A stretch of 13,902 nucleotides of DNA from a virus (taxonomy: Duplodnaviria > Heunggongvirae > Uroviricota > Caudoviricetes). A model generated the notes under the pieces. That model had not been told where the DNA came from. It saw only the letters and a list, made by a program, of their open reading frames with translations, and made no database searches. The translations under genes were made by a program, and so were the position numbers. The stretch's first letter is position 1. Every line of letters starts with the position of its first letter. Of this stretch, positions 1 through 13,902 are shown piece by piece. The stretch is taken from the IMG/VR virus record IMGVR_UViG_2718218136_000009, positions 1-13,902 of that record; one strand, 5' to 3'.

Positions 1-1230
1 ATGAGCAGAGCACTTAACAAACTGAGCGATACACAGCTAAGAAAAATCAACGGCACACCAGCCCCAAAAACCACATTTCTTAATGACGGTGGAAACCTGA
101 GTATCAGACACTCCACCAGCGGCCTGTTAACCTGGTATTTCACCTACAGGGCAGGAACAGGACGCCAGGTATCACCGGAACGCCTGAAACTGGGAAATTA
201 TCCTGATCTGAGCCTGAAAGCAGCCAGGGAAAAAGCAGCACAGTGTCGCGCATGGCTGGCAGAGGGAAAAAATCCACGCCATGAGCTTAATTACTCCATA
301 CAGGAAGCACTAAAGCCGGTAACGGTGGGCGATGCGATCAGCTACTGGCTGGAAATGCACGTAAAGGAAAACCGTGTCGATTACGTCTCCCTGAAAAGCC
401 GCCTGAATAATCACGTCATACAGCATATTGGCAATATGCCACTGGATAAATGCGAGTTACGTCACTGGCTGGCCTGTTTTGACCGGATACGCAAAAAATC
501 ACCCGTAACATCTGGCCACATGATGCAGGCGTGCAAACAGGCGCTTAAGTTCTGCCGTAAACGTCGCTACGCAGTCAGTAACGTTCTGGATGATCTCAAC
601 GTGGTGGACGTTGGCAAAAAGCCGGGCATAAGCGAACGCGTGCTTAGTAACAAAGAACTGGGCGAATTATTACAGGCACTGGATAAAAAAATATTCCCAC
701 CCTACTACAGCGCACTAATCCGCCTCCTGATTGTGTTTGGCTGCCGAACCGGAGAACTGAGGCTGTCGGAGATCAGGGAGTGGGATTTTAAGGAAATGCT
801 CTGGACGGTACCGAAAGAACACAGCAAAACGAAGGTCGCCATATTCAGGCCAATACCGGAAAGCATTTTACCGTTCGTCACGCTGCTGGTGGAGCAGAAC
901 AAACACACAGGGCTATTACTCGGGGAACAGAAACAGGAAGCCAGCGTGTCGCAATACGGCAGATTCATGCACAAAAAATTAAACCATTCGCACTGGTCAC
1001 TACACGATATACGGCGCACGTTTACCACGATGCTGAACGATTTAGGCGTGGATCCGCATATTGTCGAACAACTCACCGCTCACCAGATGCCAGGGATGCA
1101 GCGAGTCTATAACCACTCCCGTTATCTCGATGCGAAACGTAACGCGCTGGATATGTGGACAGAGCGATTAGAGATACTGGCAGGTGCTCACGAAAACGTA
1201 ACCACACTGCCAATAGCCAGAGAAATATAA
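1..1230 (+). CDS. int: Tyrosine-type site-specific integrase (P4-like phage integrase family)
   Basis: 409-aa ORF starting at ATG. N-terminal arm-binding-like region (LSIRHSTSGLLTWYFTYR). Catalytic-domain motifs GCRTGEL (box I Arg), HDIRRTF (box II His-x-x-Arg) and a C-terminal Tyr region (VYNHSRY). Size typical of P4-type integrases. Confidence 0.9.
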   Translation: MSRALNKLSDTQLRKINGTPAPKTTFLNDGGNLSIRHSTSGLLTWYFTYRAGTGRQVSPERLKLGNYPDLSLKAAREKAAQCRAWLAEGKNPRHELNYSIQEALKPVTVGDAISYWLEMHVKENRVDYVSLKSRLNNHVIQHIGNMPLDKCELRHWLACFDRIRKKSPVTSGHMMQACKQALKFCRKRRYAVSNVLDDLNVVDVGKKPGISERVLSNKELGELLQALDKKIFPPYYSALIRLLIVFGCRTGELRLSEIREWDFKEMLWTVPKEHSKTKVAIFRPIPESILPFVTLLVEQNKHTGLLLGEQKQEASVSQYGRFMHKKLNHSHWSLHDIRRTFTTMLNDLGVDPHIVEQLTAHQMPGMQRVYNHSRYLDAKRNALDMWTERLEILAGAHENVTTLPIAREI

Positions 1231-1254
1231 TTTTTTTCGCGATTTTTTAGAACG

Positions 1255-1313
1255 GAAACAACGTGAAACAACGAGACACCACGACGAACAACGGCGAACA
1301 ATCTGGAACAAAC
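1255..1313. repeat. Six tandem 10-bp-phased GAACAA-core repeats between int and alpA
   Basis: Units begin at about 1255, 1265, 1275 (degenerate GACACCAC), 1285, 1295 and 1305: GGAAACAACG, TGAAACAACG, AGACACCACG, ACGAACAACG, GCGAACAATC, TGGAACAAAC. Preceded by T-tracts at 1231-1247. Confidence 0.75.
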
Positions 1314-1597
1314 TTGATTATCATCTGACTGACACCCTAAAAAGTTGATTTTCAGTCGTTTTACTGGCTTTTTGTACATTGGCGAATCACTCTTAAAAAC
1401 ATGTAAAAAAGGCGTAAAAACAGAATTTTATGCCTTTGCACCACAATGAATTAAAAGAGTTTTTATTCTCATTACCCCACTTCTGTAAAATGACCGCCGC
1501 CAGTGTTTGCCATTCCATAAACACCCTGACACAATCCGACGCACCACAACACAATAGGACACCAAATAACTCTTTAAGAAATATCAAAGGGGGAATT

Positions 1598-1786
1598 GTG
1601 TTAAGCACAGATCGCTTTATACGTGAAAAAGAATGTCAGCAACTTACAGGCCTGAGCCGCTCATGTCGGTACCGCCTGGAAAAAGCCGGACAATTCCCAT
1701 CACGGCGTAAGCTCGGCGGTCGTTCTGTTGGCTGGTCTTTATCCGAAGTTCTGGCATGGAAGGACAGCTGCGAGGCAGTTCACTAA
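1598..1786 (+). CDS. alpA: AlpA-family (excisionase-like, MerR-superfamily HTH) transcriptional regulator
   Basis: Sequence DRFIREKECQQLTGLSRSCRYRLEKAGQFPSRRKLGGRSVGWSLSEVLAWK matches the AlpA/prophage regulatory protein pattern (HTH followed by SVGW...E...W). Start chosen at in-frame GTG 1598 after SD AAAGGGGG (1586-1593), giving 62 aa. The upstream ATG at 1430 would add a low-complexity 56-aa extension with no SD. Confidence 0.8.
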   Translation: MLSTDRFIREKECQQLTGLSRSCRYRLEKAGQFPSRRKLGGRSVGWSLSEVLAWKDSCEAVH

Positions 1787-2204
1787 TCAGGCTGGCGGCA
1801 CACAGCCGCCACCCATCCACTAATACAGAGATCTAACCATGAATACTGGATATACGCCTGTACAGGGGCGGGGCTTCGTTCGGCCTGAAAACCAGAATCT
1901 GCAAAATTTCGCCGAAATTATTCCGGTTATTTCCGGCCTTATTGGCGGGAGTGAAACCAATATTGTTAACGCCAGAGCGTTGCAGATGTTTGATGATGAA
2001 AAGGGAGTAAATTTAACTTACACCCCTGACGGCAATCAGAATATGAGCATTATCTCTGAGTCAGTTTTCTACAAACTAATAAAAACAAAAAGCGCCCCGT
2101 TGCCGGAGCGCCCTTGCGAACAATTAACCTGCTGCGAAAAAAATGGATCAGTGCAGGGGAATTATATCAACCGTGTGGCGAAGCGCCACAATTGCCGGAT
2201 AACA

Positions 2205-2235
2205 GGTAAAACAAAGGCCACCCGCGACGGTGGCC
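2205..2235 (-). terminator. Rho-independent terminator for the minus-strand RHH gene
   Basis: Read on the minus strand: 7-bp GC stem GGCCACC / GGTGGCC (2216-2222 and 2229-2235) with a 6-nt loop, followed by UUUGUUUU (complement of 2208-2215). A second hairpin TGTGGCG-aag-CGCCACA lies at 2174-2190. Confidence 0.5.
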
Positions 2236-2338
2236 CCTCGACACAAGCTACACGTTATCCCCAACGCATGAGCATAGCCAACAATGCCACATTTGCGGCT
2301 GGTGGGCAATGTGATCAGTGTGCTGGCTTGCTGGTGGG

Positions 2339-2518
2339 CTATTCCTGCTCTTTGGCCTTGCGGCGCTGGCGGCGTTTGATCTCGCCACGCATGGCTGCGC
2401 TTATAAACTGCCCTGTACTTTCGCCTTCTTCTTTCACTTTTTCCATGCCTTCAATAATTTCATGGGCAATACGTGCAGTTACAGATTGTGATTTTGCATT
2501 CTTTGGACCTGTTGCCAT
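2339..2518 (-). CDS. Ribbon-helix-helix (CopG/Arc/ParD-like) DNA-binding protein, candidate repressor of the element
   Basis: 59 aa (MATGPKNAKSQSVTARIAHEIIEGMEKVKEEGESTGQFISAAMRGEIKRRQRRKAKEQE). Beta-strand-like SVTARI followed by two short helices, as in ParD/Arc, then a basic tail. Strong SD AAGGAG six nt upstream of the ATG on the minus strand (complement of 2525-2530). Only credible minus-strand gene in the window, divergent from the early operon. Confidence 0.7.
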   Translation of the reverse strand: MATGPKNAKSQSVTARIAHEIIEGMEKVKEEGESTGQFISAAMRGEIKRRQRRKAKEQE

Positions 2519-2539
2519 GTCTAACTCCTTATGTTTTTG

Positions 2540-2620
2540 GTGTAAGACAATATACACGAAAAAAAATTATTTTGAAGGATTGACGTGTAAGACACTACTG
2601 CTTTACATTGTGTCTTACAC
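2540..2620. promoter_or_regulatory. Divergent promoter region with three operator-like 11-bp sites (GTGTAAGACAC)
   Basis: GTGTAAGACAa at 2540-2550, GTGTAAGACAC at 2585-2595 and its exact reverse complement GTGTCTTACAC at 2610-2620 (11-bp inverted repeat, 14-bp spacer). Rightward -35 TTGACG (2580-2585) and -10 TACATT (2604-2609) overlap sites 2 and 3. A leftward -10 TATATT (complement of 2550-2555) lies next to site 1. Confidence 0.6.
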
Positions 2621-2717
2621 CTTGTTTATGCAAGGTGCAGAAACGACGAAACCCCGCACTGTTGGAGCAGTAACGGGGCTTCTAACCACCAACGATAGCA
2701 GAAGTATCGAGGTAGCT

Positions 2718-2924
2718 ATGTTAAATCATACCACACACCCGCAAGGGCGGGACTCGCACAACCTGAATAAATACATCTGGCGTTTTATCGCCCTGAGCAC
2801 CGCACAACCGCGCGTGATTCACATCGAGGCCACCAGCGAACAGGAAGCACGCCAGCAATCCCCGGCTGGTTGCGTGATGGTATTCGCCGCCCGTATTCGT
2901 CAGGGGGTACGCCATGTGCAATAA
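2718..2924 (+). CDS. Small early protein, tentatively Icd-like (host cell division inhibitor-like); first gene of the early operon
   Basis: 68 aa (MLNHTTHPQGRDSHNLNKYIWRFIALSTAQ...TSEQEARQQ...). SD GAGG five nt upstream of ATG 2718. The family assignment is from memory of Icd-like proteins in P4-type islands and is not verified. Confidence 0.5.
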   Translation: MLNHTTHPQGRDSHNLNKYIWRFIALSTAQPRVIHIEATSEQEARQQSPAGCVMVFAARIRQGVRHVQ

Positions 2925-3174
2925 CACCCGTCCGGACGCAGCCGCCGAAGCTATAAAAACACTGATTGATGCGCTGATTGATATTTCTGTTATCGCAGAC
3001 AAGGCGCATAAGCACGCCACCAGCGAAACAGAATATGCCGGGGCTTTCGTTCCTCACTCACTGGCTGTTATGCAACTTAGTGCTGATATGGCGCTGAATG
3101 AGGCCAAAGCCATCCTGATTGCTGATTGTGAAAATGGGGGGGGGTTATGCGTGATGATCGTTTTAATGCCCTGA
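2914..3174 (+). CDS. Hypothetical protein (86 aa)
   Basis: ATG overlaps the upstream stop (ATGTGCAATAA). SD-like GGGGG at 2903-2907. Helical-looking composition. Reads through a G9 tract at 3136-3144. Confidence 0.5.
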   Translation: MCNNTRPDAAAEAIKTLIDALIDISVIADKAHKHATSETEYAGAFVPHSLAVMQLSADMALNEAKAILIADCENGGGLCVMIVLMP

Positions 3175-3380
3175 AACAGGAATTTGATGGCGCACCGGAT
3201 GATACAGGCGATGCGTTGCTGGCTGTTAATGACCTGATAAAGGCCGCATATTTTCTTATTCATACCGCTGAATACATATCAACGGGCACAGATGTTCTTA
3301 ATATTGCGTCGGACTATGCGGAATATGTTGCAGAGGCGCGTTACAGAAGAAAATTCCCGGAGGATGTAAGCCATGGATAA
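3147..3380 (+). CDS. Hypothetical protein (77 aa)
   Basis: ATG immediately after the G9 tract, which can act as SD. Overlaps the upstream ORF by 28 nt. Operon context. Confidence 0.5.
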   Translation: MRDDRFNALKQEFDGAPDDTGDALLAVNDLIKAAYFLIHTAEYISTGTDVLNIASDYAEYVAEARYRRKFPEDVSHG

Positions 3381-3579
3381 AATCCCTTTCGATGTTCTTA
3401 TTCATTCTGAGAATGCATTAAACCGGGCACTGGAAATGAAAGCGGTATTAATTAAATTAACCGAAGTTCATGCCGAACAGGGGGATTTATTTTCTGCTTT
3501 CAGCACTCTGTTAACCCCGGTTATTGATGAATTAAACGCGGTTATGGAAATACACGACAAGACCCGCGCAGAGGAATAA
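3373..3579 (+). CDS. Hypothetical protein (68 aa)
   Basis: Start overlaps the upstream stop (ATGGATAA), indicating translational coupling. Operon context. Confidence 0.5.
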   Translation: MDKIPFDVLIHSENALNRALEMKAVLIKLTEVHAEQGDLFSAFSTLLTPVIDELNAVMEIHDKTRAEE

Positions 3580-3584
3580 AAACC

Positions 3585-3884
3585 ATGAAACAGAAAAATT
3601 CTGGCTTTACTGCCAGCGGCTCCGCTCGGCCTGAAATCCGCCCCGGCGATATTTTCCGGGATAACTACGGCGGCACGGTAACGATTAAAAGCGTGGCGGG
3701 ACGGTGTGTTACTTACCGCCGTGAAGGTTATGACTATGACTGCGTGATGCCTGTTTATCAGTTCCGCCGTGATTTTTCTCTGGTACAGGCAGCGCAACGC
3801 AGTAAGCCCACCAGCAGGGAAAAAGCACGGGAAAATATTAAGAAAATAAAAAGCATGCTCAGCGCATCCAGAGGTAAAAAATGA
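3585..3884 (+). CDS. Hypothetical protein (99 aa)
   Basis: SD GAGGAA (3571-3576) eight nt upstream of the ATG. Stop overlaps the Rep start (ATGA). Confidence 0.55.
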   Translation: MKQKNSGFTASGSARPEIRPGDIFRDNYGGTVTIKSVAGRCVTYRREGYDYDCVMPVYQFRRDFSLVQAAQRSKPTSREKARENIKKIKSMLSASRGKK

Positions 3885-5287
3885 AACTGGCACCGAACGT
3901 AAAACTGTTACCGAAAGATAAACACACTGAGGCGGTTATTTTTGCGGGTGATAATGCTCACTCCTTTGCAGAACATTACATGATTGCACAGGCCAAAAAA
4001 GCAGGCGATCCCATCCCTCCGGTTTACCTGGGCCGTTATCAGTTAAGCGAACTGGACAATTTACAGATTGTTGATGAAGGACGATACAGAGCAAAGGTCA
4101 TACGCGCCGGAAACCTGGACGATATGCAGATGCTGACCATTGCCACAAAACTGGCGATCGCAGGTGTCCGGGAAGCGCGGTTACTTTCAGAGAATTTCGA
4201 ACTACTGGAGGACTGGGGCGAGCAACTACCGCGCCTTAAAGAAACCTGGGAACGTGGGGAAAGCCTGGTCATGAATGGCGGAAAGCGAAAAATCACACTT
4301 CCCATCTCATGGGGTTCTGAGGGATTCGACGCGCAGCAAAGCTACGTAATTAAGGGGCTTATTCCGGCTGAATCATTATGCAGCACCTACGGGGCCAGCG
4401 GCTCTTATAAATCGTTCCTGGCTATTTCCTGGTCGTGCCATGTTGCCACAGGTATGGCATGGGGAGGCCGCAGGGTCAGTAAGGGCGCGGTTATCTATAT
4501 CGCTGGTGAAGGCAGCATGGGCGTAAAACGCCGCGTTAAGGCGTGGGAGATAACCCACGACAAGGTGGTTACAGATTTGTGCATCATTAACGCGCCTGTC
4601 TTCCCTGCATCGCCTGACTATGTGGAGCAGGTTATCAGAACTGCCGGACTTGTTAAGAGCAGAACGGGCGAAAATGTGCGGCTGATTGTGATAGACACGC
4701 TGGCCCGTTGCTTTGGTGGGAATGATGAAAATGATTCCCGTGATATGGGCGCATTTATCCAGGGGTGTGACGCGATAAAGCAGGCCACAGGGGCCACGGT
4801 GCTGGTGGTTCACCATTCCGGCAAGGATGAAACAAAGGGGGCGCGTGGTTCCAGCGCATTCCGTGCCGCACTGGATGCAGAGTACCGAATCAGCCGGGAA
4901 AATTCAGACGTTACAGCACTGGTGGCGGCGTGTACGAAGATGAAGGACGCAGAGGAGCCAAAAGAAAGCGCATACGACCTTAAAAGCGTGGAGGTGTTTA
5001 CCGATACAGATGGCGAAGAGATTGTGTCCATGGTGGTGATTGACGTTCCCCGCGCCCCTGCTGAACTGGAACGCATCGAGGAGGCCGGGAACAAGACGGA
5101 AAATCACACGGCTTTATGGGGTTGTATCCGATCACGTATACAGCATGGTGATAAATGCACGATCCCGTTGCTACGTGACGACATGAAAAAGCTGGGATAT
5201 GACACAAAACACCTTAAACGATGGTTAGCAAAACTGGAAAAAGACGGCGTGATTTGCGTCGATGGGGATGATGTTCACCCACTGTAA
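3881..5287 (+). CDS. RecA-like/AAA_25-type P-loop ATPase with C-terminal winged-helix region; candidate replication initiator or helicase (Rep)
   Basis: 468 aa. Walker A GASGSYKSF, Walker B LIVIDTLARC, and VLVVHHSGKD as in RepA/DnaB-C-like ATPases. SD GAGG six nt upstream. An iteron array follows the stop directly. Confidence 0.8.
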   Translation: MKLAPNVKLLPKDKHTEAVIFAGDNAHSFAEHYMIAQAKKAGDPIPPVYLGRYQLSELDNLQIVDEGRYRAKVIRAGNLDDMQMLTIATKLAIAGVREARLLSENFELLEDWGEQLPRLKETWERGESLVMNGGKRKITLPISWGSEGFDAQQSYVIKGLIPAESLCSTYGASGSYKSFLAISWSCHVATGMAWGGRRVSKGAVIYIAGEGSMGVKRRVKAWEITHDKVVTDLCIINAPVFPASPDYVEQVIRTAGLVKSRTGENVRLIVIDTLARCFGGNDENDSRDMGAFIQGCDAIKQATGATVLVVHHSGKDETKGARGSSAFRAALDAEYRISRENSDVTALVAACTKMKDAEEPKESAYDLKSVEVFTDTDGEEIVSMVVIDVPRAPAELERIEEAGNKTENHTALWGCIRSRIQHGDKCTIPLLRDDMKKLGYDTKHLKRWLAKLEKDGVICVDGDDVHPL

Positions 5288-5488
5288 AAAGTGGGCGTTA
5301 AAAGTGGGAATAGTGGGTAATTTAACCGAAATTTAACAAAATCGCCCACTTTCCCACGTGTATACATCCAAAAAAGTGGGCACTAAAAAAATACTTATGA
5401 AACAGTACGATATAAAACCACAAAATCCCAGGTGGGACGAAGTGGGAAACCATGAAAAGTGGGCAGAAAAAGTGGGCACAGGTGGGCG
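5286..5488. repeat. Iteron array (about 11 copies of A/G-GTGGG, consensus AAAGTGGGCA) with central AT-rich segment; candidate replication origin
   Basis: AGTGGG cores at 5290, 5303, 5312, 5375, 5441, 5458, 5471; GGTGGG at 5431 and 5481; inverted copies CCCACT at 5345-5350 and CCCAC at 5353-5357. AT-rich stretch 5384-5427 between the iteron groups. Position is immediately 3' of the Rep gene. Confidence 0.7.
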
Positions 5489-5489
5489 C

Positions 5490-5741
5490 ATGACAAGAAA
5501 AACCAGAGATAAGACAGCACCAAAATATAAAGCGTTAGACATGACAGAGCACGCCTTAAAGGTGGCAATCAGAACGATAGACCGCCACGCCGGGGAAGGA
5601 TACGCGAAAGCACATCCCGAACTGATAAGCGCATTCATGACCACGACGGCGGCAAACTTTGCCACGCTGACAGAACGGGAGATTGCCGAAGCGGAACAGG
5701 TGACAACCATCAACGTTAAAACCGGAGAGCATACAGCATGA
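5490..5741 (+). CDS. Hypothetical protein (83 aa from ATG 5490)
   Basis: The reading frame opens at GTG 5358 inside the iterons. ATG 5490 follows the last iteron and AGGTGGG. ATG 5398 and 5541 are alternatives. Stop overlaps the SSB start. Confidence 0.4.
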   Translation: MTRKTRDKTAPKYKALDMTEHALKVAIRTIDRHAGEGYAKAHPELISAFMTTTAANFATLTEREIAEAEQVTTINVKTGEHTA

Positions 5742-6163
5742 CAGCACAGATAGCGGCTTACGGGCGGCTGGTGGCTGACCCGCAGTTAAAGACCACCAGC
5801 AAAGGGACACAAATGGCGATGGCGAGTATGGCGGTTCCCCTGCCGTGCAGCCAGGCCGATGACGGAACGGCGACGATGTGGTTATCCGTCCTGGCGTTTG
5901 GCAGACAGGCCGACGCACTGGCAAAGCACCACAAAGGCGAACTCGTGAGCGTGGCGGGTAACATGCAGGTAAGCCAGTGGACAGGCCAGAACGGCGAAAC
6001 GCGGCAGGGCTGGCAGGTTATCGCAGACAGTGTAATCAGTGCCAGAACGGCGCGACCGGGCGGCAAAAAAGGCCAGCAGGGCCAGGCCACTGACGCACTG
6101 AACAGGGCAAAACAACAGACAGGCCAGCACGATGACCCGTACGGGGACGGGATACCGTTTTAA
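5738..6163 (+). CDS. ssb: Single-stranded DNA-binding protein (SSB-like)
   Basis: 141 aa. OB-fold-like core (AAYGRLVADPQLK..., WLSVLAFGRQADALAKHHKGELVSVAGNMQVSQWTGQNGETRQ) and acidic C-terminal tail ending DGIPF, as in the bacterial SSB D-D-D-I-P-F tip. SD GGAGAG upstream. Confidence 0.8.
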   Translation: MTAQIAAYGRLVADPQLKTTSKGTQMAMASMAVPLPCSQADDGTATMWLSVLAFGRQADALAKHHKGELVSVAGNMQVSQWTGQNGETRQGWQVIADSVISARTARPGGKKGQQGQATDALNRAKQQTGQHDDPYGDGIPF

Positions 6164-6199
6164 TTCACAACAGCGAACAGAGTAATTACAGGGGAAGGC

Positions 6200-6730
6200 A
6201 TGACAAAGATGACCATTAACCGAAAACCGAAAGGCATTTACGGCACGCCGCAGAAAATACCGCAGGCGGCACAGCAGCAGGATAAAACCACATCGGCGCA
6301 TAAAGTGATACCCGGCAATCAGAACGCACAGCAGAAACCCACAGGGGCGACAGCGTGGCGGCATATGACCAAACGCCAGCGCAAAAACCGCAGACGCGTT
6401 AACCGCCTTATTGAATTGTGGCCAGAATTATTCAGCCGGGAAGCACCGAAGCCGCTTAAGGTGGGGATATTCGACGACCTGATGCAGGATATCGCCGCCA
6501 GGGGGCTGACATTCGGGCCGGGGGCATTACGTGCGACGCTGGCATCCTATGCGCAGTCTCCGCGCTATTACCGCGCCTTAATAGCTGGTGGGGTACGCTA
6601 CGACCTGAAAGGCCAGCCATGTGGGGAAGTGACACCACAGGAACAGCAGGAGGCAGAAACGCGGCTGATGGCGCTGAATGAGAAGCACAAGCGCCAGCGC
6701 CGGGCAGCAAAGGGGGATACATGCCAGTGA
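6200..6730 (+). CDS. ProQ/FinO-family RNA-binding protein (FinO domain)
   Basis: 176 aa. Segment LFSREAPKPLKVGIFDDLMQDIAARGL...LRATLASYAQSPRYYRALIAGGVRYDLKGQPCGEVT aligns by eye with the E. coli ProQ N-terminal domain ([23 protein letters not shown]...LRSALRLYTSSWRYLYGV...RVDLDGNPCGEL). Basic, disordered N-terminal extension. ATG 6209 is an alternative start. Confidence 0.8.
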   Translation: MTKMTINRKPKGIYGTPQKIPQAAQQQDKTTSAHKVIPGNQNAQQKPTGATAWRHMTKRQRKNRRRVNRLIELWPELFSREAPKPLKVGIFDDLMQDIAARGLTFGPGALRATLASYAQSPRYYRALIAGGVRYDLKGQPCGEVTPQEQQEAETRLMALNEKHKRQRRAAKGDTCQ

Positions 6731-6969
6731 CATTTGAAGAAGTTCAGCAACATAAAAAGTTTCATGGTTTTGATGATCTGGAAACCACGACAGCAAAAAA
6801 ATATCGCCGTCTGCTTTCTTCCGATGCGTTGTTTGTTGTGGATCATCATGATTTTCTGCGCAGCTCACTGACCGGGGAAATTTTCGCAACCAACCGTGAG
6901 CAGGTGGAAGCGATGATCGAATATCTGTGGAAAATAAGACGCAGAATGCGGGATCCAGTGAAACAATAA
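6721..6969 (+). CDS. Hypothetical protein (82 aa)
   Basis: Start overlaps the ProQ/FinO stop (ATGCCAGTGA). SD AGGGGG upstream. Last gene of the early operon. Confidence 0.5.
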   Translation: MPVTFEEVQQHKKFHGFDDLETTTAKKYRRLLSSDALFVVDHHDFLRSSLTGEIFATNREQVEAMIEYLWKIRRRMRDPVKQ

Positions 6970-7024
6970 AGCGATAAAGGCCTGGATTTTTTTTCAGGTC
7001 TTTTTTTCAGGTTTTGTAAATTAT

Positions 7025-7050
7025 TTGTTCGTGGTTGTTCCAGGTTGTTC
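7025..7050. repeat. Three TTGTTC repeats at exact 10-bp phasing upstream of the capsid operon (reverse complement of the int-alpA GAACAA repeats)
   Basis: TTGTTC at 7025-7030, 7035-7040 and 7045-7050. The reverse complement cGAACAAcctgGAACAAccacGAACAA closely matches 1285-1313 (cGAACAAcggcGAACAAtctgGAACAA). Tandem TTTTTTTCAGGT repeats sit just upstream at 6987-7012. Confidence 0.7.
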
Positions 7051-7244
7051 GGTGATTCTGGCTGATGTTTACATACTGATTTTTATGTATATGTTGGCGT
7101 GTGGCACTCAGACGTGAGCCGCCACAATGCCGCCTGACCCCCTGCGCGATGCCGGGTTGATCTGCGAGATGCCGAGAGTGTCGGGCGGCGCTCCCTCCGT
7201 GTTGGTTTCACGTCCTGAATCTTAACCAATACGAGAAAACCTTC

Positions 7245-8414
7245 ATGAAGAAATTAATCGAACTCCGCCAGCAAAAAACCGCCCTGAAAAACCAGATGCG
7301 ATCCCTGCTGGAAAAAGCCGACAGTGAAAACCGCAGCCTGAACGATGACGAGGGCAAACAGTTTGATGAACTGCGTGCAAAAGCCGATTCCCTCGACACA
7401 GAAATTTCCCGCCTCGAGTCTGTGGCTGATGAAGAACGCAGCAAGCCAGGAACGGGCATCCAGAAATTATCATCTGATGAATTGCGTAACTATATCGTAA
7501 CCGGAGATGTGCGATCACTGTCCACCAGCACTGACAGCGGCAGGGATGGCGGATATACCGTAATTCCTGAGCTTGATCGCGAAGTCATGCGCCAGCTACA
7601 GGATGACAGTGTTATGCGCGTGATCGCGACCGTGAAGACCGCAAAATCAAATGAGTTTCAGAAACTGGTTTCCACTGGCGGCGCAACTGTAGGAAGAGGC
7701 ACAGAAGGCAGCGCGCGCAGCGAAACCAACACCCCGAAAATTGAACGCGTAACCATCAAGCTGAATCCGATCTACGCCTACCCGAAAACCACGCAGGAAA
7801 TCCTGGATTTTTCAGAGGTGGATATTCTGGGCTGGTTATCCTCCGAAATTGCCGACACGTTCGCCAGCACCGAAGAGGATGATTTTGTTAATGGCGACGG
7901 TAACGGCAAGCCGAAAGGATTCATGGCTTACACCCGTGCGGCGACCAGTGACAAAACCCGCGCTTTTGGCACCATTGAAAAAATGGTAGCGGCAAGTGGA
8001 ACCGCCATTACAGCGGACGAACTGATCGACATTCTCTACAAGCTGAAAGCGAAATACCGCAAAAATGCCGTCTGGGTGATGAACTCGGGCACGGCAGGGA
8101 CACTACAGAAGCTGAAAAATGAGAACGGCGATTATATCTGGCGCGACAGCCTTAAAGAAGGTGCGCCGGATATGTTGCTTGGTCGTCCTGTTTACTGCCT
8201 GGAGTCCATGCCGGACATCGGCGCAGGAAAAGCACCGCTAGCGGTTGGCGATTTCAGTCGTGGTTATTTCATCGTTGATCATGTAACAGGGATTCGCACC
8301 CGACCGGACAACATTACTGAACCCGGATTCTACAAGGTCCACACGGATAAATATCTGGGCGGTGGTGTGGTGGATTCAAACGCCATCAAAATTCTGGAAA
8401 TGAAAGCTGGCTAG
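7245..8414 (+). CDS. Phage major capsid protein, HK97 family
   Basis: 389 aa. N-terminal coiled-coil delta-domain-like region (MKKLIELRQQKTALKNQMRSLLEKADSE...LRAKADSLDTEISRLE) followed by a capsid-fold-sized body. Immediately upstream of the prohead protease and portal genes. Confidence 0.85.
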   Translation: MKKLIELRQQKTALKNQMRSLLEKADSENRSLNDDEGKQFDELRAKADSLDTEISRLESVADEERSKPGTGIQKLSSDELRNYIVTGDVRSLSTSTDSGRDGGYTVIPELDREVMRQLQDDSVMRVIATVKTAKSNEFQKLVSTGGATVGRGTEGSARSETNTPKIERVTIKLNPIYAYPKTTQEILDFSEVDILGWLSSEIADTFASTEEDDFVNGDGNGKPKGFMAYTRAATSDKTRAFGTIEKMVAASGTAITADELIDILYKLKAKYRKNAVWVMNSGTAGTLQKLKNENGDYIWRDSLKEGAPDMLLGRPVYCLESMPDIGAGKAPLAVGDFSRGYFIVDHVTGIRTRPDNITEPGFYKVHTDKYLGGGVVDSNAIKILEMKAG

Positions 8415-8426
8415 TCATGAGTAAGG

Positions 8427-8448
8427 AGGAGGCTGCGGCCTCCTTTTT
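8427..8448 (+). terminator. Rho-independent terminator or attenuator directly after the major capsid gene
   Basis: Stem AGGAGGC (8427-8433) / GCCTCCT (8438-8444), loop TGCG, then a T-run to 8448. Lies between the capsid stop (8414) and the protease start (8469). Confidence 0.6.
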
Positions 8449-8468
8449 CAGCTTTATGGAGTACACCG

Positions 8469-9029
8469 ATGAAAAACACCGATTTTGAAATCCGCACATC
8501 TGAACTGACCGCCAGCGATAAAAAACTGGTGGGTTATGCCGTTCGCTGGAACAGCCTTTCAGAAATTATCTGGGACGAATTCCGCGAACAGTTCACGCCG
8601 GGGGCTTTTGCTGACTATCTGGCGGCGGGTAATGATGTGCGCTGCCTGTATGAGCATGACTATACCCAACTGCTGGGGCGCACCAAATCCGGCACTCTGG
8701 TACTGACTGAGGATAACACCGGGTTACGTTTTGAGCTGACACCGCCGGATACCCAGCTTGGAAAAGATGTGCTTACGCTGGTGGAGCGTGGCGACATTAC
8801 AGGAATGAGCTTTGGTTTTCGCGCATTATGCGAGGAGTGGAGTATCGCGCAAAAACCGTATTTGCGTACCGTAACTGCCGCAGAACTCCGTGAAATCACG
8901 ATAACGTCGATGCCTGCTTATCCCGAATCCGGCGTGGAGATTGCCCACCGTTCGTTGTTTGCACAGCACCCTGAATTACGCCCGGCAGGAAATAATCGTC
9001 ATCGCTGGGCTGAACTGGCGGGGTTGTGA
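8469..9029 (+). CDS. Prohead maturation protease, HK97 family
   Basis: 186 aa. Motifs typical of HK97-type prohead proteases: GYAVRWNSLSE, FTPGAF, CLYEHD...LLGRTKSGTLVL, RGDITGMSFGF. SD GGAG seven nt upstream. Confidence 0.85.
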   Translation: MKNTDFEIRTSELTASDKKLVGYAVRWNSLSEIIWDEFREQFTPGAFADYLAAGNDVRCLYEHDYTQLLGRTKSGTLVLTEDNTGLRFELTPPDTQLGKDVLTLVERGDITGMSFGFRALCEEWSIAQKPYLRTVTAAELREITITSMPAYPESGVEIAHRSLFAQHPELRPAGNNRHRWAELAGL

Positions 9030-9030
9030 T

Positions 9031-10254
9031 ATGTGGTGGCCTTTTAGTCGTAAAAAAAGCGAGCTGCGTAACCTGTCCATTGATGATTTTCTGGCGCTGT
9101 CCGGCGTACCGAATACCGGAGCCGGAGAATATGTTTCTGCCGGGACGGCTGAATCATTGCCTGCTGTGATGAACGCGGTTTCTGTCATCGCTGAGGCGGT
9201 GGCCACGATGCCGTGTTATCTGTATCTGGTACGTAATGACAAGGGCAGGGAGGCGCGGGAATGGCTGGACAGTCACCCGGTCGATATTCTGCTGAATGAG
9301 CAGCCTAATTCGTGCCAGACACCTTACCAGTTTAAACGCACAATGATGCGTCACTGCCTGCTGAACGGTAACGCCTATGCGGTTATTGAGTGGGGGCGGG
9401 ACGGTCAGCCAAAATCACTTCATCCTTATGCGCCGGGGTGTGTTGTACCGGAACGCACAGGCGCACACAAATACCGCTATACCATCACCGAACCCTATAC
9501 AGGAACGGTGCGCACGTATTTACAGGAAGAAGTTCTGCATCTCCGCTATGCCTCGGATGATGGCTTTCTGGGGCGCTCCCCTGTCACGATTTGCCGTGAG
9601 GCACTTGGGCTTGGCCTTGCTCAACAGCGCCACGGAGCCAGCATTATGAAAGATGGCATGATGGCGGCAGGGATTATCACGTCAGGCGAATGGCTGGACG
9701 GCGTGAAAGGTAAACAGGCATTGGATGCTCTGGAACGCTACAAGGGGGCGAAAAATGCCGGAAAAACGCCAATCCTTGAAGGGGGCATGGATTACAAGCA
9801 ACTGGGAATGAGTAACCAGGATGCGGAATGGCTGGCCTCCCGTCGCTTCTCCATTGAAGACATTGCCCGTATGTTCAACGTATCGCCTATTTTTCTGCAG
9901 GAATACAGCAATAGCACCTACAGCAATTTCAGCGAGGCAAGCCGCGCGTTTCTGACCATGACAATGCGCCCATGGCTGGCGAACTTCGAACAGCAAATCA
10001 AGGCTGCTTTGCTGGTGGCTTCTCCCGTACCTGGTACCCGTTATCTGGTTGAGTTTGATTCAGCCGATTTACTGCGCGCCACACCTACCGAACGTTACGC
10101 CACGTATGAGAAAGGAATTAAGAACGGGATCATGAATCCGAACGAAGCCCGTGAGCGTGAGGGAATGCCGCCGCGTGAAGGTGGCGACGAGTTCAGCCAG
10201 GCATGGAAGCAGGAAGTGACAATCAGCAAGAACAGTAAGGGCGGTGACGAATGA
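9031..10254 (+). CDS. Phage portal protein, HK97 family
   Basis: 407 aa from ATG 9031, two nt after the protease stop. N-terminus MWWPFSRKKS...LSIDDFLAL and body (NAVSVIAEAVATMP, PILEGGMDYKQLGMSNQDAEWL, FSIEDIARMFNVSP) fit the portal pattern. The six-frame ORF beginning at 8941 is an upstream read-through of the frame. Confidence 0.85.
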   Translation: MWWPFSRKKSELRNLSIDDFLALSGVPNTGAGEYVSAGTAESLPAVMNAVSVIAEAVATMPCYLYLVRNDKGREAREWLDSHPVDILLNEQPNSCQTPYQFKRTMMRHCLLNGNAYAVIEWGRDGQPKSLHPYAPGCVVPERTGAHKYRYTITEPYTGTVRTYLQEEVLHLRYASDDGFLGRSPVTICREALGLGLAQQRHGASIMKDGMMAAGIITSGEWLDGVKGKQALDALERYKGAKNAGKTPILEGGMDYKQLGMSNQDAEWLASRRFSIEDIARMFNVSPIFLQEYSNSTYSNFSEASRAFLTMTMRPWLANFEQQIKAALLVASPVPGTRYLVEFDSADLLRATPTERYATYEKGIKNGIMNPNEAREREGMPPREGGDEFSQAWKQEVTISKNSKGGDE

Positions 10255-10589
10255 TAGCCGGAAATATGCGGGACCGGGTGACGATTATGACATTTACCAC
10301 ACAGCGCCTGCCGTCAGGTGCGATCCAGCAGATATGGACGGAAGGGGAAACCATCTGGGCAGAGGTCAAGGGGATCAGCGGACGGGAATTACTGACCGCA
10401 GGCGCAGAAACCGCACCTGCAACGATTCGGGTATGGGTTCGCTATCGTGGCGACATATCCGCCGCCAGTCGCCTGAAAGTGCTTACCGGCGCTTTTGCCG
10501 GGAGCACGCTTAATATCATCGGGATCCCCTTACCTGATGCGAAAAGAACCCGGCTGGAAATTCTGGCAAAGGTGGGTACAGAAAAATGA
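10251..10589 (+). CDS. Head closure / head-tail adaptor protein (gp16-like)
   Basis: 112 aa. N-terminal MRDRVTI motif and W...VKGISGRE pattern typical of head-tail joining proteins. Start overlaps the portal stop (ATGA). Confidence 0.65.
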   Translation: MIAGNMRDRVTIMTFTTQRLPSGAIQQIWTEGETIWAEVKGISGRELLTAGAETAPATIRVWVRYRGDISAASRLKVLTGAFAGSTLNIIGIPLPDAKRTRLEILAKVGTEK

Positions 10590-10882
10590 CAGCAGAAAAA
10601 ATAACCCTGGAAGAGGCCAAACTTCACTGCCGCATAGATGGTAACACAGAAGACACACTGATTCAGGCATACATAAGCGCGGCGCTGGAGGTATGCCAGA
10701 AGCATATTGGCAGGCGTTTTGATGACGGCCTGGAATTTACCCCTGCAATAAAAATTGGTTGCCTGATGTACATCTCGCAACTGTACGAGTACCGGACAAC
10801 GCTTGGCGATACCGATACAAAAGAAATTCCCCTGACGATTTCCGCGCTCTGGTCGGTTTATCGTGATGTGGGGGTGTACTGA
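10586..10882 (+). CDS. gp6-like head-tail connector protein
   Basis: 98 aa. ITLEEAKLHCRIDGNTEDTLIQAYISAA is typical of the gp6-like connector family. Start overlaps the upstream stop. SD AAGGTGGG upstream. Confidence 0.65.
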   Translation: MTAEKITLEEAKLHCRIDGNTEDTLIQAYISAALEVCQKHIGRRFDDGLEFTPAIKIGCLMYISQLYEYRTTLGDTDTKEIPLTISALWSVYRDVGVY

Positions 10883-11322
10883 TGCCATGGCAACCATTAA
10901 GGCGATGCACTGAGCCGGGCTGTAATAAGCGCGTGAAGTCCGGCAAGTGTGAAGAGCACAGGCGGGCTGCATGGCGTGCAGAGGATGCCAGACGGGGACA
11001 CCGCCGCGCACGTGGGTATTCCCGACTGTGGGACAAATACCGCGCCATGTACCTGAAAAAAAATCCGTTATGCGTGCGTTGTCTGGCTAAGGGTATTTAT
11101 ACGCCAGCTCTTGTGGTGGATCACATCATTCCCATCAATGGCGGCGGTGATGTTCTCTTCTGGCCTGAGTGGAACCACCAGGCATTGTGCCAGACGTGCC
11201 ACAACCGTAAGACGACACGGGAAGATCCAGCCACGAAAGCGAACCGTAAGGCGGGCATGTATCGCGAGCAGGAAGAACGGGCGGCACATCGTAACGACTG
11301 GATGTATGGCGATGATGACTGA
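10882..11322 (+). CDS. HNH endonuclease, phage packaging-associated
   Basis: 146 aa. Cys pairs (CTEPGC...CEEH; CVRC) and HNH core VVDHIIPINGGGD...NHQALCQTCHNRKT. ATG overlaps the upstream stop by 1 nt (TGATG). Sits directly upstream of TerS and TerL. Confidence 0.85.
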   Translation: MPWQPLRRCTEPGCNKRVKSGKCEEHRRAAWRAEDARRGHRRARGYSRLWDKYRAMYLKKNPLCVRCLAKGIYTPALVVDHIIPINGGGDVLFWPEWNHQALCQTCHNRKTTREDPATKANRKAGMYREQEERAAHRNDWMYGDDD

Positions 11323-11491
11323 ACAGGAGCAAAACAGGCTGATACGTGGACTGATAAGGCAGCGTGACTTATGGAAGACACAGGAGACAGGGCACAAAGC
11401 CAACAGGACAGAGCGCACAGAACGCACCACAGCGAAGCGATTAACCGACCGTGACCGCGAGGTCATGGAATGTTTTCGCAATCGCTGGTGA
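11306..11491 (+). CDS. Possible small ORF (61 aa) overlapping the HNH 3' end
   Basis: ATG 11306 in the +1 frame relative to HNH (MAMMTEQEQNRLIRGL...). No clear SD and no family recognised. May be non-coding. Confidence 0.25.
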   Translation: MAMMTEQEQNRLIRGLIRQRDLWKTQETGHKANRTERTERTTAKRLTDRDREVMECFRNRW

Positions 11492-11610
11492 GGCCGTCAG
11501 AGGGGGTGGGGGAGGTTTTCAGGACGAAACCGCCCCTGCCGGACACCGACCGCCTCCTCAAATTTTTGTGCACGGGAATTTTTTTGAAAATAATTGGGCG
11601 AAAAAAGAAC

Positions 11611-11967
11611 ATGGCAAGACCACCAAAAGCCCCCGCTTACCTGGATGAAATCGCGGTCAGGCAGTGGAAGGAAAAATCGCGCCAGCTTTCCGGGCGGGAA
11701 GACCTTACCCCCGCCGACTGGAGCAATCTGGAACTGTATTGTGTTAACTACTCCATATACCGCAAAGCCGTCGAAGACCTTGCGACGCGCGGGTTCAGCA
11801 TTGTTAACAGTCAGGGCAGCGAGAGCAGAAACCCCGCCCTGAGCGCAAAGGCTGACGCGGAAAGAATAATGATCAAAATGGCTTCTTTGCTGGGTTTTGA
11901 CCCGGTAAGCCGCCGCAGAAATCCACCGGAAACAGAGGAAGAGGACGAGCTTGACCGCCTGGCATGA
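11611..11967 (+). CDS. terS: Terminase small subunit (P27-family-like)
   Basis: 118 aa from ATG 11611: MARPPKAPAYLDEIAVRQWKE...LELYCVNYSIYRKAVEDL...NPALSAKADAERIMIKMASLLGFDPVSRRR, a pattern typical of P27-family TerS. The extension from ATG 11470 is low-complexity and not credited. Confidence 0.8.
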   Translation: MARPPKAPAYLDEIAVRQWKEKSRQLSGREDLTPADWSNLELYCVNYSIYRKAVEDLATRGFSIVNSQGSESRNPALSAKADAERIMIKMASLLGFDPVSRRRNPPETEEEDELDRLA

Positions 11968-13612
11968 GTACGCAGAAGGCGTAAAAAACGGCAAAATTAC
12001 GGCCTGTAAACGACTGAAACAGGCCGTTAAACGGTATTTTTATGACCTTGAAAACCCCCTTTACACGTTCGAACCGGAGGTCGTGGAGCGGTTTATTGCC
12101 TTTTCCAGGGTGTGTCCGCACGTAAAAGGCGCAATGCGTGGTAGCCCCATTGAGCTGGAGCCGTGGCAGCAGTTCGCCTTTGCGTGCATCCTGGGCTTTA
12201 AGGTTAAGGCCACCGGACGGCGCAAATACACCAGCGCATTCATTGAAGTACCGCGAAAAAATGCCAAATCCACGGTCGCCGCTATCCTGGCTAACTGGTT
12301 TCTGGTTATGGAAAACGGGCAGCAGGATATTTACACCGCCGCCGTGAGTCGTGATCAGGCGCGGATCGTGTTTGATGATGCGCGTCAGATGTGCCTTTTA
12401 TCCCGACCGTTACGAAAGCGGGTAAATATTCAGGCACACAAGGTGATACACCCGAAAACCAACAGCCTGTTAAAGCCACTGGCAGCAAAAGCGGCAACCA
12501 TTGAAGGTACAAACCCGAGTCTTGCCATTGTAGATGAATATCACCTGCACCCTGACAACGGGGTTTATTCCGCGCTTGAACTGGGAATGGGGGCGCGTCC
12601 GGAGGGGTTATTATTTGCCATCACCACATCGGGGAGCAACGTTGTTTCAGCCTGTAAACAACACTACGACTATTGCTGCCAGATACTGGATGGTGAAGAG
12701 GTGAACGAATCCATGTTCGTACTGATTTACGAGCTGGATGATGAAAGCGAGGTTGACGATCCGGCGATGTGGATAAAGGCGAATCCCAATATCGATGTTT
12801 CCGTCGATCGTGAAAAACTGGCCTCAACCATCCAGAAAGCGCGGGGTATTCCGTCGCAGTGGGTGGAAATGCTCACCAAGCGATTCAATATCTGGTGTCA
12901 GGGGGCTACGCCGTGGATGGGTAACGGTGCATGGGCGGAGTGCGCCGGAACGTTCACGGAGGCGGATTTATACGGGCAGGAGTGCTACGCGGGGCTGGAC
13001 TTATCATCAACCAGCGATATTTCCAGCGTGTGCTATGCCTTTCCGGTCGGTAAAAAGATTATGCTGGTTTCCCGTCACTATCTGCCGGAATTTCAGCTAC
13101 AGAACCCCGCCAATAAAAACCGCGCCATCTATCGCCAGTGGGTAAAGGCGGGCTGGATACGCACAACACCGGGTGACTGCATTGATTATGACCGTATCCG
13201 TGATGACATCATGGCGGATGCAGAGAATTTCAATATCAGGCTGGTGGGCTTCGATACATGGAACGCCACGCACCTGAGGACGCAGCTACAGGGCGCAGGA
13301 TTTGAGGTGGAGCCGTTCCCGCAAACATACCTTCGTTTCAGTCCGGCGGCGAAATCGTTCGAGGTTTTTGTTAACCGGAAGGTGATTGTGCATCGTGGTG
13401 ATCCGGTGCTGGCCTGGTCAATGAGTAATGTTGTGATGCAGAGTGACGCGAACGCCAATATCAAGCCGAACAAGAAAAAATCATCCAACAAGATAGACCC
13501 GAGCGTTGCGGCGCTGATGGCGTTTGGCACATTCCAGTCAGAGCATGAAGAATTTGCATTTGATATGAGTGACAGCCACAAAGAGCGGCTTGCGGCGTTT
13601 GATGGGGTATGA
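11951..13612 (+). CDS. terL: Terminase large subunit (Terminase_1-like ATPase-nuclease)
   Basis: 553 aa. First in-frame start is TTG 11951, preceded by SD GAGGAAGAGGA. Overlaps terS by 17 nt. Conserved N-terminus (AEGVKNGKITACKRLKQAVKRYFYDLEN), Walker A VPRKNAKST, Walker B LAIVDEYH. Confidence 0.9.
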   Translation: MTAWHEYAEGVKNGKITACKRLKQAVKRYFYDLENPLYTFEPEVVERFIAFSRVCPHVKGAMRGSPIELEPWQQFAFACILGFKVKATGRRKYTSAFIEVPRKNAKSTVAAILANWFLVMENGQQDIYTAAVSRDQARIVFDDARQMCLLSRPLRKRVNIQAHKVIHPKTNSLLKPLAAKAATIEGTNPSLAIVDEYHLHPDNGVYSALELGMGARPEGLLFAITTSGSNVVSACKQHYDYCCQILDGEEVNESMFVLIYELDDESEVDDPAMWIKANPNIDVSVDREKLASTIQKARGIPSQWVEMLTKRFNIWCQGATPWMGNGAWAECAGTFTEADLYGQECYAGLDLSSTSDISSVCYAFPVGKKIMLVSRHYLPEFQLQNPANKNRAIYRQWVKAGWIRTTPGDCIDYDRIRDDIMADAENFNIRLVGFDTWNATHLRTQLQGAGFEVEPFPQTYLRFSPAAKSFEVFVNRKVIVHRGDPVLAWSMSNVVMQSDANANIKPNKKKSSNKIDPSVAALMAFGTFQSEHEEFAFDMSDSHKERLAAFDGV

Positions 13613-13902
13613 CGAGAATGAGCGAAACCGAACTACTAAAAATAATCCGCCGCATTACCGGAATCAGCCAGGCAGCAGGCAAACAGGAGGCCACGCAGCC
13701 GGACAGCGTGATAGCCGAAAATTACGCGCGTGTGGTGGCTGAGGTGATGCGCCGTGATGGTATAGAGCTTAACGGCGTGGATATGCGCGACATACGAATC
13801 AGAGTTCTGGAGTTGTTGTCATATCGTCGCCGCGTGGAGATGTACCGGGAGAAAGAAAAAATTACTTACCACTGGAAGAAGCCGGAACGGTTACGGCGGT
13901 AA
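13609..13902 (+). CDS. Hypothetical protein (97 aa), last gene of the late operon
   Basis: Start overlaps the terL stop (ATGA); ATG 13618 is an alternative. No family recognised. Basic C-terminus. Confidence 0.45.
   Translation: MTRMSETELLKIIRRITGISQAAGKQEATQPDSVIAENYARVVAEVMRRDGIELNGVDMRDIRIRVLELLSYRRRVEMYREKEKITYHWKKPERLRR

Follow-up and report, generated by a model that had tools for sequence, protein, structure and literature searches.

What kind of element carries a full set of genes for building and filling a phage head in less than 14 kb, and no gene for a tail? This question is raised by the 13,902 bp of the IMG/VR virus record IMGVR_UViG_2718218136_000009 (Caudoviricetes), which we analyzed over its whole length (positions 1 to 13,902) and refer to in the following as the window. 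The window opens with the ATG of a tyrosine integrase gene and closes with the stop codon of a small conserved open reading frame (ORF); its plus strand is nearly all coding and taken up by assigned genes. An initial annotation, made from the letters alone, had proposed that it represents a capsid-forming phage-inducible chromosomal island (cf-PICI), that is, a satellite that builds its own capsid and takes only the tail from a helper phage. We arrive at the same reading with high confidence: the window is very probably the coding body, from the integrase gene to the last ORF, of a cf-PICI of Escherichia coli that belongs to the lineage of the prototype EcCIEDL933. This assignment rests on colinearity with EcCIEDL933, on the match of the capsid protein to the solved EcCIEDL933 capsid, and on att-bounded, near-identical copies that are free of tail and lysis genes. 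The cf-PICI family was described in 2022-2023, has been characterized structurally and is catalogued in hundreds of genomes, and the window is an ordinary member of it.

A head and packaging module colinear with EcCIEDL933

All 11 core functions of cf-PICIs are present and intact in the window, namely the integrase (Int), AlpA, a replication gene, the capsid, protease, portal, adaptor and connector, an HNH endonuclease, and the small (TerS) and large (TerL) terminase subunits. Every gene named in the initial annotation, including the complete HK97-type head and packaging set that it described, is found at full length in Pfam comparisons. Its statement that the tail is missing holds as well: no ORF in the window matched a tail, baseplate, tape-measure, holin or lysin family in Pfam, PHROGs, NCBIfam or PADLOC. 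Compared by definition, this inventory would correspond to the cfPICI 'Type A' of SatelliteFinder (de Sousa et al., NAR 2023), which uses five primase-replicase profiles: the 11 core functions are there, and the tail and holin genes that the definition forbids are missing. The same study places cfPICIs in about 13% of Enterobacteriaceae genomes.

The prototype EcCIEDL933 (Alqurainy et al., 2022, 2023; He et al., 2025) is located at NZ_CP008957.1 1,680,329-1,694,760. It contains homologs of 18 of the 23 window ORFs, which follow each other in the same order from int to the last ORF and show 43-94% amino acid identity. At 15.4-15.5 kb, packaged in a T=4 capsid, it compares with about 14.8 kb that we estimate for the window's element, both within the range of about 10-18 kb that suits a small (T=4) cf-PICI capsid, and neither of the two has tail or lysis genes. 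In EcCIEDL933, mutagenesis showed that each gene of the head and packaging module, save a small hypothetical gene, is required for transfer of the island, that transfer is severely reduced in a mutant of gene 1792, that transfer needs the tail genes of the helper but not its head genes, and that mutation of alpA abolishes induction and transfer (10.1101/2022.09.08.507074). Induction by AlpA, small capsids that contain only the island, and dependence on helper tails have been shown for EcCIEDL933 and a few other cf-PICIs.

As initially annotated, int and alpA lie at one end of the window, together with a replication gene of the element's own. In the following, features are on the plus strand unless stated otherwise, identities refer to amino acid sequences, and the values in brackets are E-values for the named families. 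Int (1-1230, 409 residues) has a P4-type arm-binding N-terminus (Pfam Arm-DNA-bind_3, 7e-18; Phage_integrase, 5e-17) and is 86% identical to EcCIEDL933 Int. The alpA gene (1598-1786), which starts with GTG as do its RefSeq homologs, encodes a PICI activator and excision regulator of 62 residues (Pfam Phage_AlpA, 1.5e-17) with 94% identity to its EcCIEDL933 counterpart.

The head genes begin with that of the HK97-fold major capsid protein (MCP; 7245-8414; Pfam Phage_capsid, 2e-71), which has an N-terminal delta domain and matches the capsid chain of the EcCIEDL933 cryo-EM structure (PDB 9gyi) with E=1.7e-155. It is 64% identical to the EcCIEDL933 protein and 21% identical to HK97 gp5, and it keeps a 13-residue insertion that is missing from HK97 gp5 and matches the 'connector loop' of the EcCIEDL933 T=4 capsid. 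Next come the prohead serine protease (8469-9029; Pfam Peptidase_S78, 9e-46), with 63% identity to EcCIEDL933, and the portal of 407 residues (9031-10254; Pfam Phage_portal, 6e-93), which shares 82% of its residues with EcCIEDL933 and 27% with HK97 gp3. The module continues with the tail-facing head-closure protein Hc1 (10251-10589; Pfam Phage_HCP, 2e-18; PDB 2kz4, 9e-35), called 'head-tail adaptor' in the cf-PICI literature, and with a gp6-like head-tail connector of the Ad1 type (10586-10882; Pfam Phage_connect_1, 8e-12), which is 68% identical to that of EcCIEDL933 but at most 36% identical to those of bona fide phages and has no close phage relative. The succession of an Hc1-type before an Ad1-type gene (10251-10882) reverses the order seen in HK97 and in Escherichia phage Fraca; EcCIEDL933 has the same inversion.

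The packaging genes follow. An HNH endonuclease as in the HK97-type cos packaging system (10882-11322; Pfam HNH, 9e-10; 84% identity to EcCIEDL933) is succeeded by a conserved ORF of 61 residues (11306-11491; phrog_3173, 1e-28; 80% identity), which, going by the gene numbering, would be the positional homolog of EcCIEDL933 gene 1792. Immediately 5' of terS lies a G-rich non-coding stretch (11492-11610) whose columns are on average 95% identical when four elements, EcCIEDL933 among them, are compared. Its position, compared with other systems of this kind, suggests that it is the cis-acting cos site for HNH, TerS and TerL. TerS itself belongs to the P27 family and comprises 118 residues (11611-11967; Pfam Terminase_4, 4e-23; 88% identity), with a longer reading of 165 residues from 11470, and TerL comprises 553 (11951-13612; Pfam TerL_nuclease, 2e-52; TerL_ATPase, 4e-26; 93% identity). 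The last conserved ORF, of 97 residues and unknown function, completes the window (13609-13902; phrog_1561, 7e-50; 75% identity). EcCIEDL933 shows the same arrangement of HNH, small ORF, P27-type TerS and TerL, with a conserved non-coding stretch before terS.

In one respect the initial annotation went too far. It had suggested that the order of the late genes, with the capsid first and the terminase last, may mark a distinct lineage; this order is found in EcCIEDL933 and in every relative that we retrieved, and is thus the norm of the family. The differences from EcCIEDL933 are swaps of whole modules, as already described for cf-PICIs, and a distinct lineage is not supported.

Boundaries, insertion sites and distribution

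The att sites lie outside the window, which extends only from the start codon of int to the final stop codon. We read the boundaries from near-identical copies among the relatives, which are denoted by L numbers: L009 is 99.1% identical to the window over 1-11238, and L004, L020 and L024 are 99.8% identical over 5715-13902. Comparison with the intact K-12 gene shows that the L009 and L004 copies interrupt yifB (comM) at codons 52-57, and a 16-bp core, ATTAT[C/A]AATAGCGGAT, is duplicated at the element ends in the yifB copies. The initial annotation had anticipated flanking direct repeats, typically at the 3' end of a tRNA or tmRNA gene. The repeats do bound the near-identical copies, but the site is inside a protein gene; a scan of the window itself found no tRNA or tmRNA. 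EcCIEDL933, by comparison, is integrated between roxA and phoQ. An exact-protein look-up placed the identical Int protein in E. coli contigs only beside ilvL, within yifB.

Two further sets of repeats were found near the ends of L004. Direct repeats of 24 bp and 14 bp were considered as att and rejected, as the intact K-12 yifB puts the junction core, the 16-mer, further out. An imperfect 58-bp direct repeat that contains GGTGTAGTTAAT twice lies just inside both ends (L004:3203-3260 and L004:18299-18356) and also occurs in L017 (L017:30250-30307); these repeats are probably arm-type binding sites of the integrase and not the att core.

In L004, the inserted DNA measures 15.3 kb, with a difference of 0.5 kb in the region from the replication gene to the gene of the single-stranded DNA-binding protein (SSB). 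Projected from this copy and corrected for the difference, the full element of the window would measure about 14.8 kb, consisting of the window with a left flank of about 0.17 kb and a right flank of 0.73 kb. The initial annotation had asked whether tail genes sit between the last ORF and attR. In the near-identical copies, this interval of about 730 bp is non-coding, with no called gene. The exact last ORF was found in ten contexts, and what comes after it is non-coding DNA and host genes in 10 of 10 cases and a tail gene in none. Contiguous tail and lysis genes in the same att-bounded element, which the initial annotation had named as an observation that would refute its reading, are thus not seen in these copies. 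In the right non-coding arm (L004:17704-18436), TAACCCGYTGAT occurs three times, along with several strong hairpins; Rfam has no match for the arm at E<=1. Copies integrated in yifB that share this last ORF are 99.9-100% identical over the arm, and stretches of it are also conserved in elements inserted elsewhere, EcCIEDL933 among them.

Elements of this architecture are found at six or more insertion sites: in yifB, between cspD and clpS, between roxA and phoQ, near hpt, upstream of thiM, and within the terL gene of a prophage. The packaging module is covered to at least 80% in 385 of 5426 complete E. coli genomes (about 7%). In phage collections, no record of normal phage size exceeds 37% identity to the window in MCP or TerL, and closer matches come only from four small records (3.8-16.5 kb) and a 106-kb Klebsiella record. 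For TerL, identities above 60% are limited to LR881103.1 (16.5 kb), OR544139.1 (15.3 kb), OR544138.1 (10.7 kb) and the Klebsiella phage PQ569648.1 (106 kb); for MCP, the four records above this value are LR881103.1, OR544139.1, PQ569648.1 and OR850982.1 (3.8 kb). The small, near-complete 'phage' records are probably cf-PICIs that were deposited as phages, and the sizes of LR881103.1, OR544139.1 and OR544138.1 suggest that these are cf-PICIs from induced lysates rather than phages.

Replication module and putative origin

Replication is one of the functions in which the window departs from the gene content of the prototype. Its replication gene (3881-5287) encodes a RepA-family replicative helicase or initiator of 468 residues (Pfam AAA_25, 7.5e-43), whose RefSeq homologs are named 'helicase RepA family protein'. 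The likeness of this protein to the DUF927 primase of EcCIEDL933 is confined to the N-terminal 122 residues, with 45% identity. The initial annotation had also pointed to an iteron origin, and the repeats are real as a sequence feature. The stretch right behind repA (5278-5487) contains about 9-12 copies of the motif AAAAGTGGG, close variants included, and our repeat search delineated the region as a putative origin with about 9-12 copies of (A)AAAGTGGG and AT-rich spacers. As a measure of the clustering, 9 of the 14 AGTGGG hexamers of the window fall within 5270-5490 (221 bp; binomial p about 1e-13).

Among the relatives that we retrieved, every one with an AAA_25-type RepA has the iteron cluster 3' of repA, and those with a DUF927 or D5_N primase all lack it. 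Such strict co-occurrence with the RepA type is the pattern expected of a cognate pair of initiator and origin, and we infer from it and from the repeats that the cluster may function as the replication origin.

The neighboring genes are shared with EcCIEDL933. Directly 5' of the replication gene, in the window as in all relatives, lies the gene of a DUF4222 protein (3585-3884; Pfam DUF4222, 1.6e-24; 71% identity to EcCIEDL933). On the other side, the iterons are followed by a conserved ORF of 83 residues (5490-5741; phrog_1231, 7e-50; 88% identity) and by the gene of the SSB (5738-6163; Pfam SSB, 4e-16; 70% identity).

Alternative explanations

Head and packaging genes of phage type, together with a degraded fragment of a Bro-N gene (1977-2105), might be taken for what is left of an HK97-like prophage that lost its tail, lysis and immunity regions and is now inert. 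Hendrixvirinae such as HK97 and Fraca have the same S78 protease, HK97-fold MCP and HNH-assisted cos packaging as the window. The resemblance is nevertheless distant, with identities of 21% for MCP, 27-33% for the portal and 28-32% for TerL, and the low identity of MCP and TerL to all phages of normal size, described above, speaks against such a descent as well. The gene order is also unlike that of HK97-like phages: these run from TerS, TerL, portal, protease and MCP to Ad1 and Hc1, whereas the window runs from capsid, protease, portal, Hc1 and Ad1 to HNH, TerS and TerL. The window lacks the tail, lysis and immunity genes of Hendrixvirinae and has about one third of their genome size, and it does not show the tail, tape-measure, lysis and repressor or immunity functions and the size of about 40 kb that characterize a functional temperate phage. 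It also counts against a decaying prophage that all 11 core genes are intact, that the left half of int, alpA, DUF4222 and rep constitutes a PICI module, and that the same architecture of 14-15 kb recurs at six or more att sites in hundreds of genomes. We consider the prophage remnant largely refuted and very unlikely.

The PICI-type left half could also point to a satellite of the classical PICI or P4-like kind, which would remodel helper capsids and redirect the helper terminase, with its own head genes serving only to interfere. Classical E. coli PICIs such as EcCICFT073 and EcCIED1a do have the left half of int, alpA and replication region in common with the window, as well as AlpA-dependent induction, and 1966 genomes match some part of the window, compared with 537 that match the packaging module. 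Classical PICIs, however, have no MCP, portal, connectors or TerL; they rely on the capsids of the helper, whose terminase they redirect via Rpp. Accordingly, the SatelliteFinder model for PICIs lists portal, connector and adaptor as 'forbidden' components, and the window has a portal, connector, adaptor and TerL. Scans with Pfam and PHROGs assigned none of the P4 functions psu, sid, delta, epsilon or alpha-type primase to a window ORF, and the element, unlike a P4-like satellite with its reliance on the cos site and capsid of the helper P2, has an MCP and terminase of its own. A role of the head genes in mere interference also conflicts with the prototype, in which the homologous genes are each required for transfer and the helper's are not. 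This explanation is extremely unlikely.

Finally, although the next-best solved MCP after the EcCIEDL933 capsid is that of the Rhodobacter capsulatus gene transfer agent (GTA), which also appears among the portal matches, a GTA-like head module domesticated by the host can be dismissed with near certainty: GTAs carry tail genes and have neither int nor rep, while the window's element has its own integrase, AlpA, putative replication origin and conserved putative cos region, is att-bounded, and occupies variable sites in only about 7-10% of strains.

The assignment to the cf-PICIs is itself subject to several reservations. The MCP is only 64% identical to that of the prototype and reads STSTDSGRDGG in the region of the cleavage motif, where the prototype reads STGVPADGG; capsid size and maturation are for this reason extrapolated. 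The replication module differs, with an AAA_25 RepA helicase and AAAAGTGGG iterons in the window as opposed to a DUF927 primase-helicase in EcCIEDL933. The att sites and the right non-coding arm are taken from relatives. The window, furthermore, is a mosaic of a left part with 99.1% and a right part with 99.8% identity to different copies, and no exact copy was found: an exact-protein look-up of TerL returned no record, and exact look-ups of Int, the ProQ protein (see below) and the last ORF led only to relatives with 97.7-99.8% identity. The window's element is, in addition, known here as a sequence, from which its likely tail donor is predicted. All these points weigh against the cf-PICI reading, and our high confidence in it takes them into account.

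Tail interface and possible helpers

Among the differences from EcCIEDL933, the allele of the head-closure protein tells the most. With its EcCIEDL933 counterpart this protein shares only 54% of its residues, which implies that the two elements differ in tail preference. Its identity reaches 59% with HK97 gp7 and 63-69% with the Hc1 proteins of Fraca and several temperate Klebsiella siphophages; MCP, portal and TerL, unlike it, show only 21-28% identity to HK97. Relatives that otherwise match the window at 95-98% identity throughout the packaging module diverge from it exactly at 10212-10679. According to published work, cf-PICIs exchange their adaptor and connector genes, and experiments showed that tail compatibility is set by these genes (10.1101/2025.02.11.637232); the confinement of the divergence to this interval reproduces the published swapping. 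Since no other head protein comes nearly as close to its Hendrixvirinae counterpart as the head-closure protein does, these phages are the most likely tail donors, and the window's element may use the tails of HK97-like phages.

An observation on sister elements concerns the same group of phages. L008, and also L003 and L007, are cf-PICIs that sit inside the terL gene of a Fraca-like (Hendrixvirinae) prophage; through most of the packaging module, they match the window at 95-97% identity. In L008, the two halves of the interrupted gene (L008:2341-3534 and L008:18034-18759) align to Fraca TerL at 84-86% identity, with an overlap of 45 nt. The prophages split in this way belong to the group whose head-closure protein resembles that of the window.

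Accessory genes and the left half

Between ssb and the head operon, the window carries a gene for a ProQ/FinO-domain protein of 176 residues (6200-6730; Pfam ProQ, 4e-25; sub-threshold matches to FinO/ProQ in NCBIfam). The exact protein was found in 99 blocks of a public collection, every time in the same slot. In EcCIEDL933 as well as in L001, L002, L013, L014, L017 and L023, this slot holds PerC instead, so that two common alleles alternate at one position in otherwise similar elements; both ProQ and PerC have been reported before, in a survey of phage satellites from Enterobacter cloacae (PMC13612085). A conserved ORF of 82 residues (6721-6969; phrog_1957, 2e-36; 43% identity to EcCIEDL933) separates the slot from the head operon.

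The interval 3' of alpA is where the window differs further from EcCIEDL933, by a degraded Bro-N gene and a gene on the minus strand. The former (1977-2105) was recognized by tblastn with the intact Bro-N protein of L003 (50% identity over 46 residues, E=1e-7). The latter, the sole minus-strand gene of the window (2339-2518), encodes a small protein of the YlcI/YnfO family (59 residues; NCBIfam NF041551, 7e-19; phrog_949, of unknown function). Divergent from it runs the icd-like and replication operon, which begins with an Icd-like protein of 68 residues (2718-2924; NCBIfam phage_ICD_like, 6e-20; phrog_6196, 1e-44; 55% identity to the EcCIEDL933 homolog) and continues with three small ORFs (2914-3174, 3147-3380 and 3373-3579) that match phrog_5146, phrog_2512, phrog_24341 and phrog_2196, all of unknown function. 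A scan for the sigma-70 consensus found a divergent pair of promoter-like sequences between the two transcription units (2549-2609, both strands; 9/12 positions per strand), and a consensus scan on the minus strand found two terminator-like hairpins 3' of the ylcI-like gene (2088-2238), with GC-rich stems of 12 and 10 bp followed by T runs; both are pattern matches.

A long ORF in this interval (1839-2924, 361 residues) was rejected as a gene. Taken whole, it matches no Pfam family, and it is a composite, made up of the Bro-N remnant, the ylcI-like gene read in antisense, and the icd-like gene. Comparable long 'hypothetical' ORFs have been called in relatives, with 329 residues in L005 and 247 in EcCIEDL933, and are probably annotation artefacts.

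The initial annotation had considered the minus-strand gene part of a switch based on a ribbon-helix-helix (RHH) protein and, with the gene order, a possible mark of a distinct lineage. The distinct lineage is not supported, and our results speak neither for nor against the fold: the candidate matches only YlcI/YnfO, and an RHH fold, for which we would expect an N-terminal beta-strand followed by two helices together with a match to an RHH family or structure, is unproven. There is no Pfam match even at E<=10, Foldseek gave a best PDB match of E=2.8, and a phmmer search of the same database returned nothing relevant. An AlphaFold2 single-sequence model of the monomer (pLDDT 83) shows two helices in a helical hairpin, preceded by a disordered N-terminus.

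In all, the small conserved ORFs of unknown function in the window number seven, as judged by Pfam, PHROGs and NCBIfam. PADLOC identified no defence system among the accessory ORFs, and no Rfam family matched the window at E<=1.

Proposed life cycle and implications

Using EcCIEDL933 as a guide, we can outline how an element of this kind would propagate; the 16-bp core in yifB is the one step that is seen directly, in the near-identical copies. Integrated in yifB (comM) at this core, the element would stay in place until a helper phage triggers alpA, leading to excision and switching on the rightward operon. RepA and the element's own SSB would then replicate it from the putative iteron origin just 3' of repA. 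From the late operon, the element's MCP, protease and portal would assemble a small HK97-fold procapsid, probably with T=4 symmetry, and its HNH, TerS and TerL proteins would recognize the candidate cos site 5' of terS to package one copy of the genome, about 14.8 kb long. Sealing of the filled head would fall to the gp6-like connector and the head-closure protein, and the head would finally join a tail made by a helper siphophage.

It is conceivable, if improbable, that the HK97-like head closure, the ProQ/FinO protein (an RNA chaperone by its family) encoded before the capsid genes, the YlcI/YnfO gene that faces the replication operon and the RepA/iteron module jointly define a functional sub-lineage of cf-PICIs, one that targets Hendrixvirinae helpers and alters the expression of helper or host post-transcriptionally. 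If this were true, insertion in the terL gene of such a prophage, as in the sister elements, would let the satellite hold its helper hostage. For the allele in the window, the concrete prediction is that its HK97-like, tail-facing head-closure protein would make Hendrixvirinae siphophages the donors of its tails.

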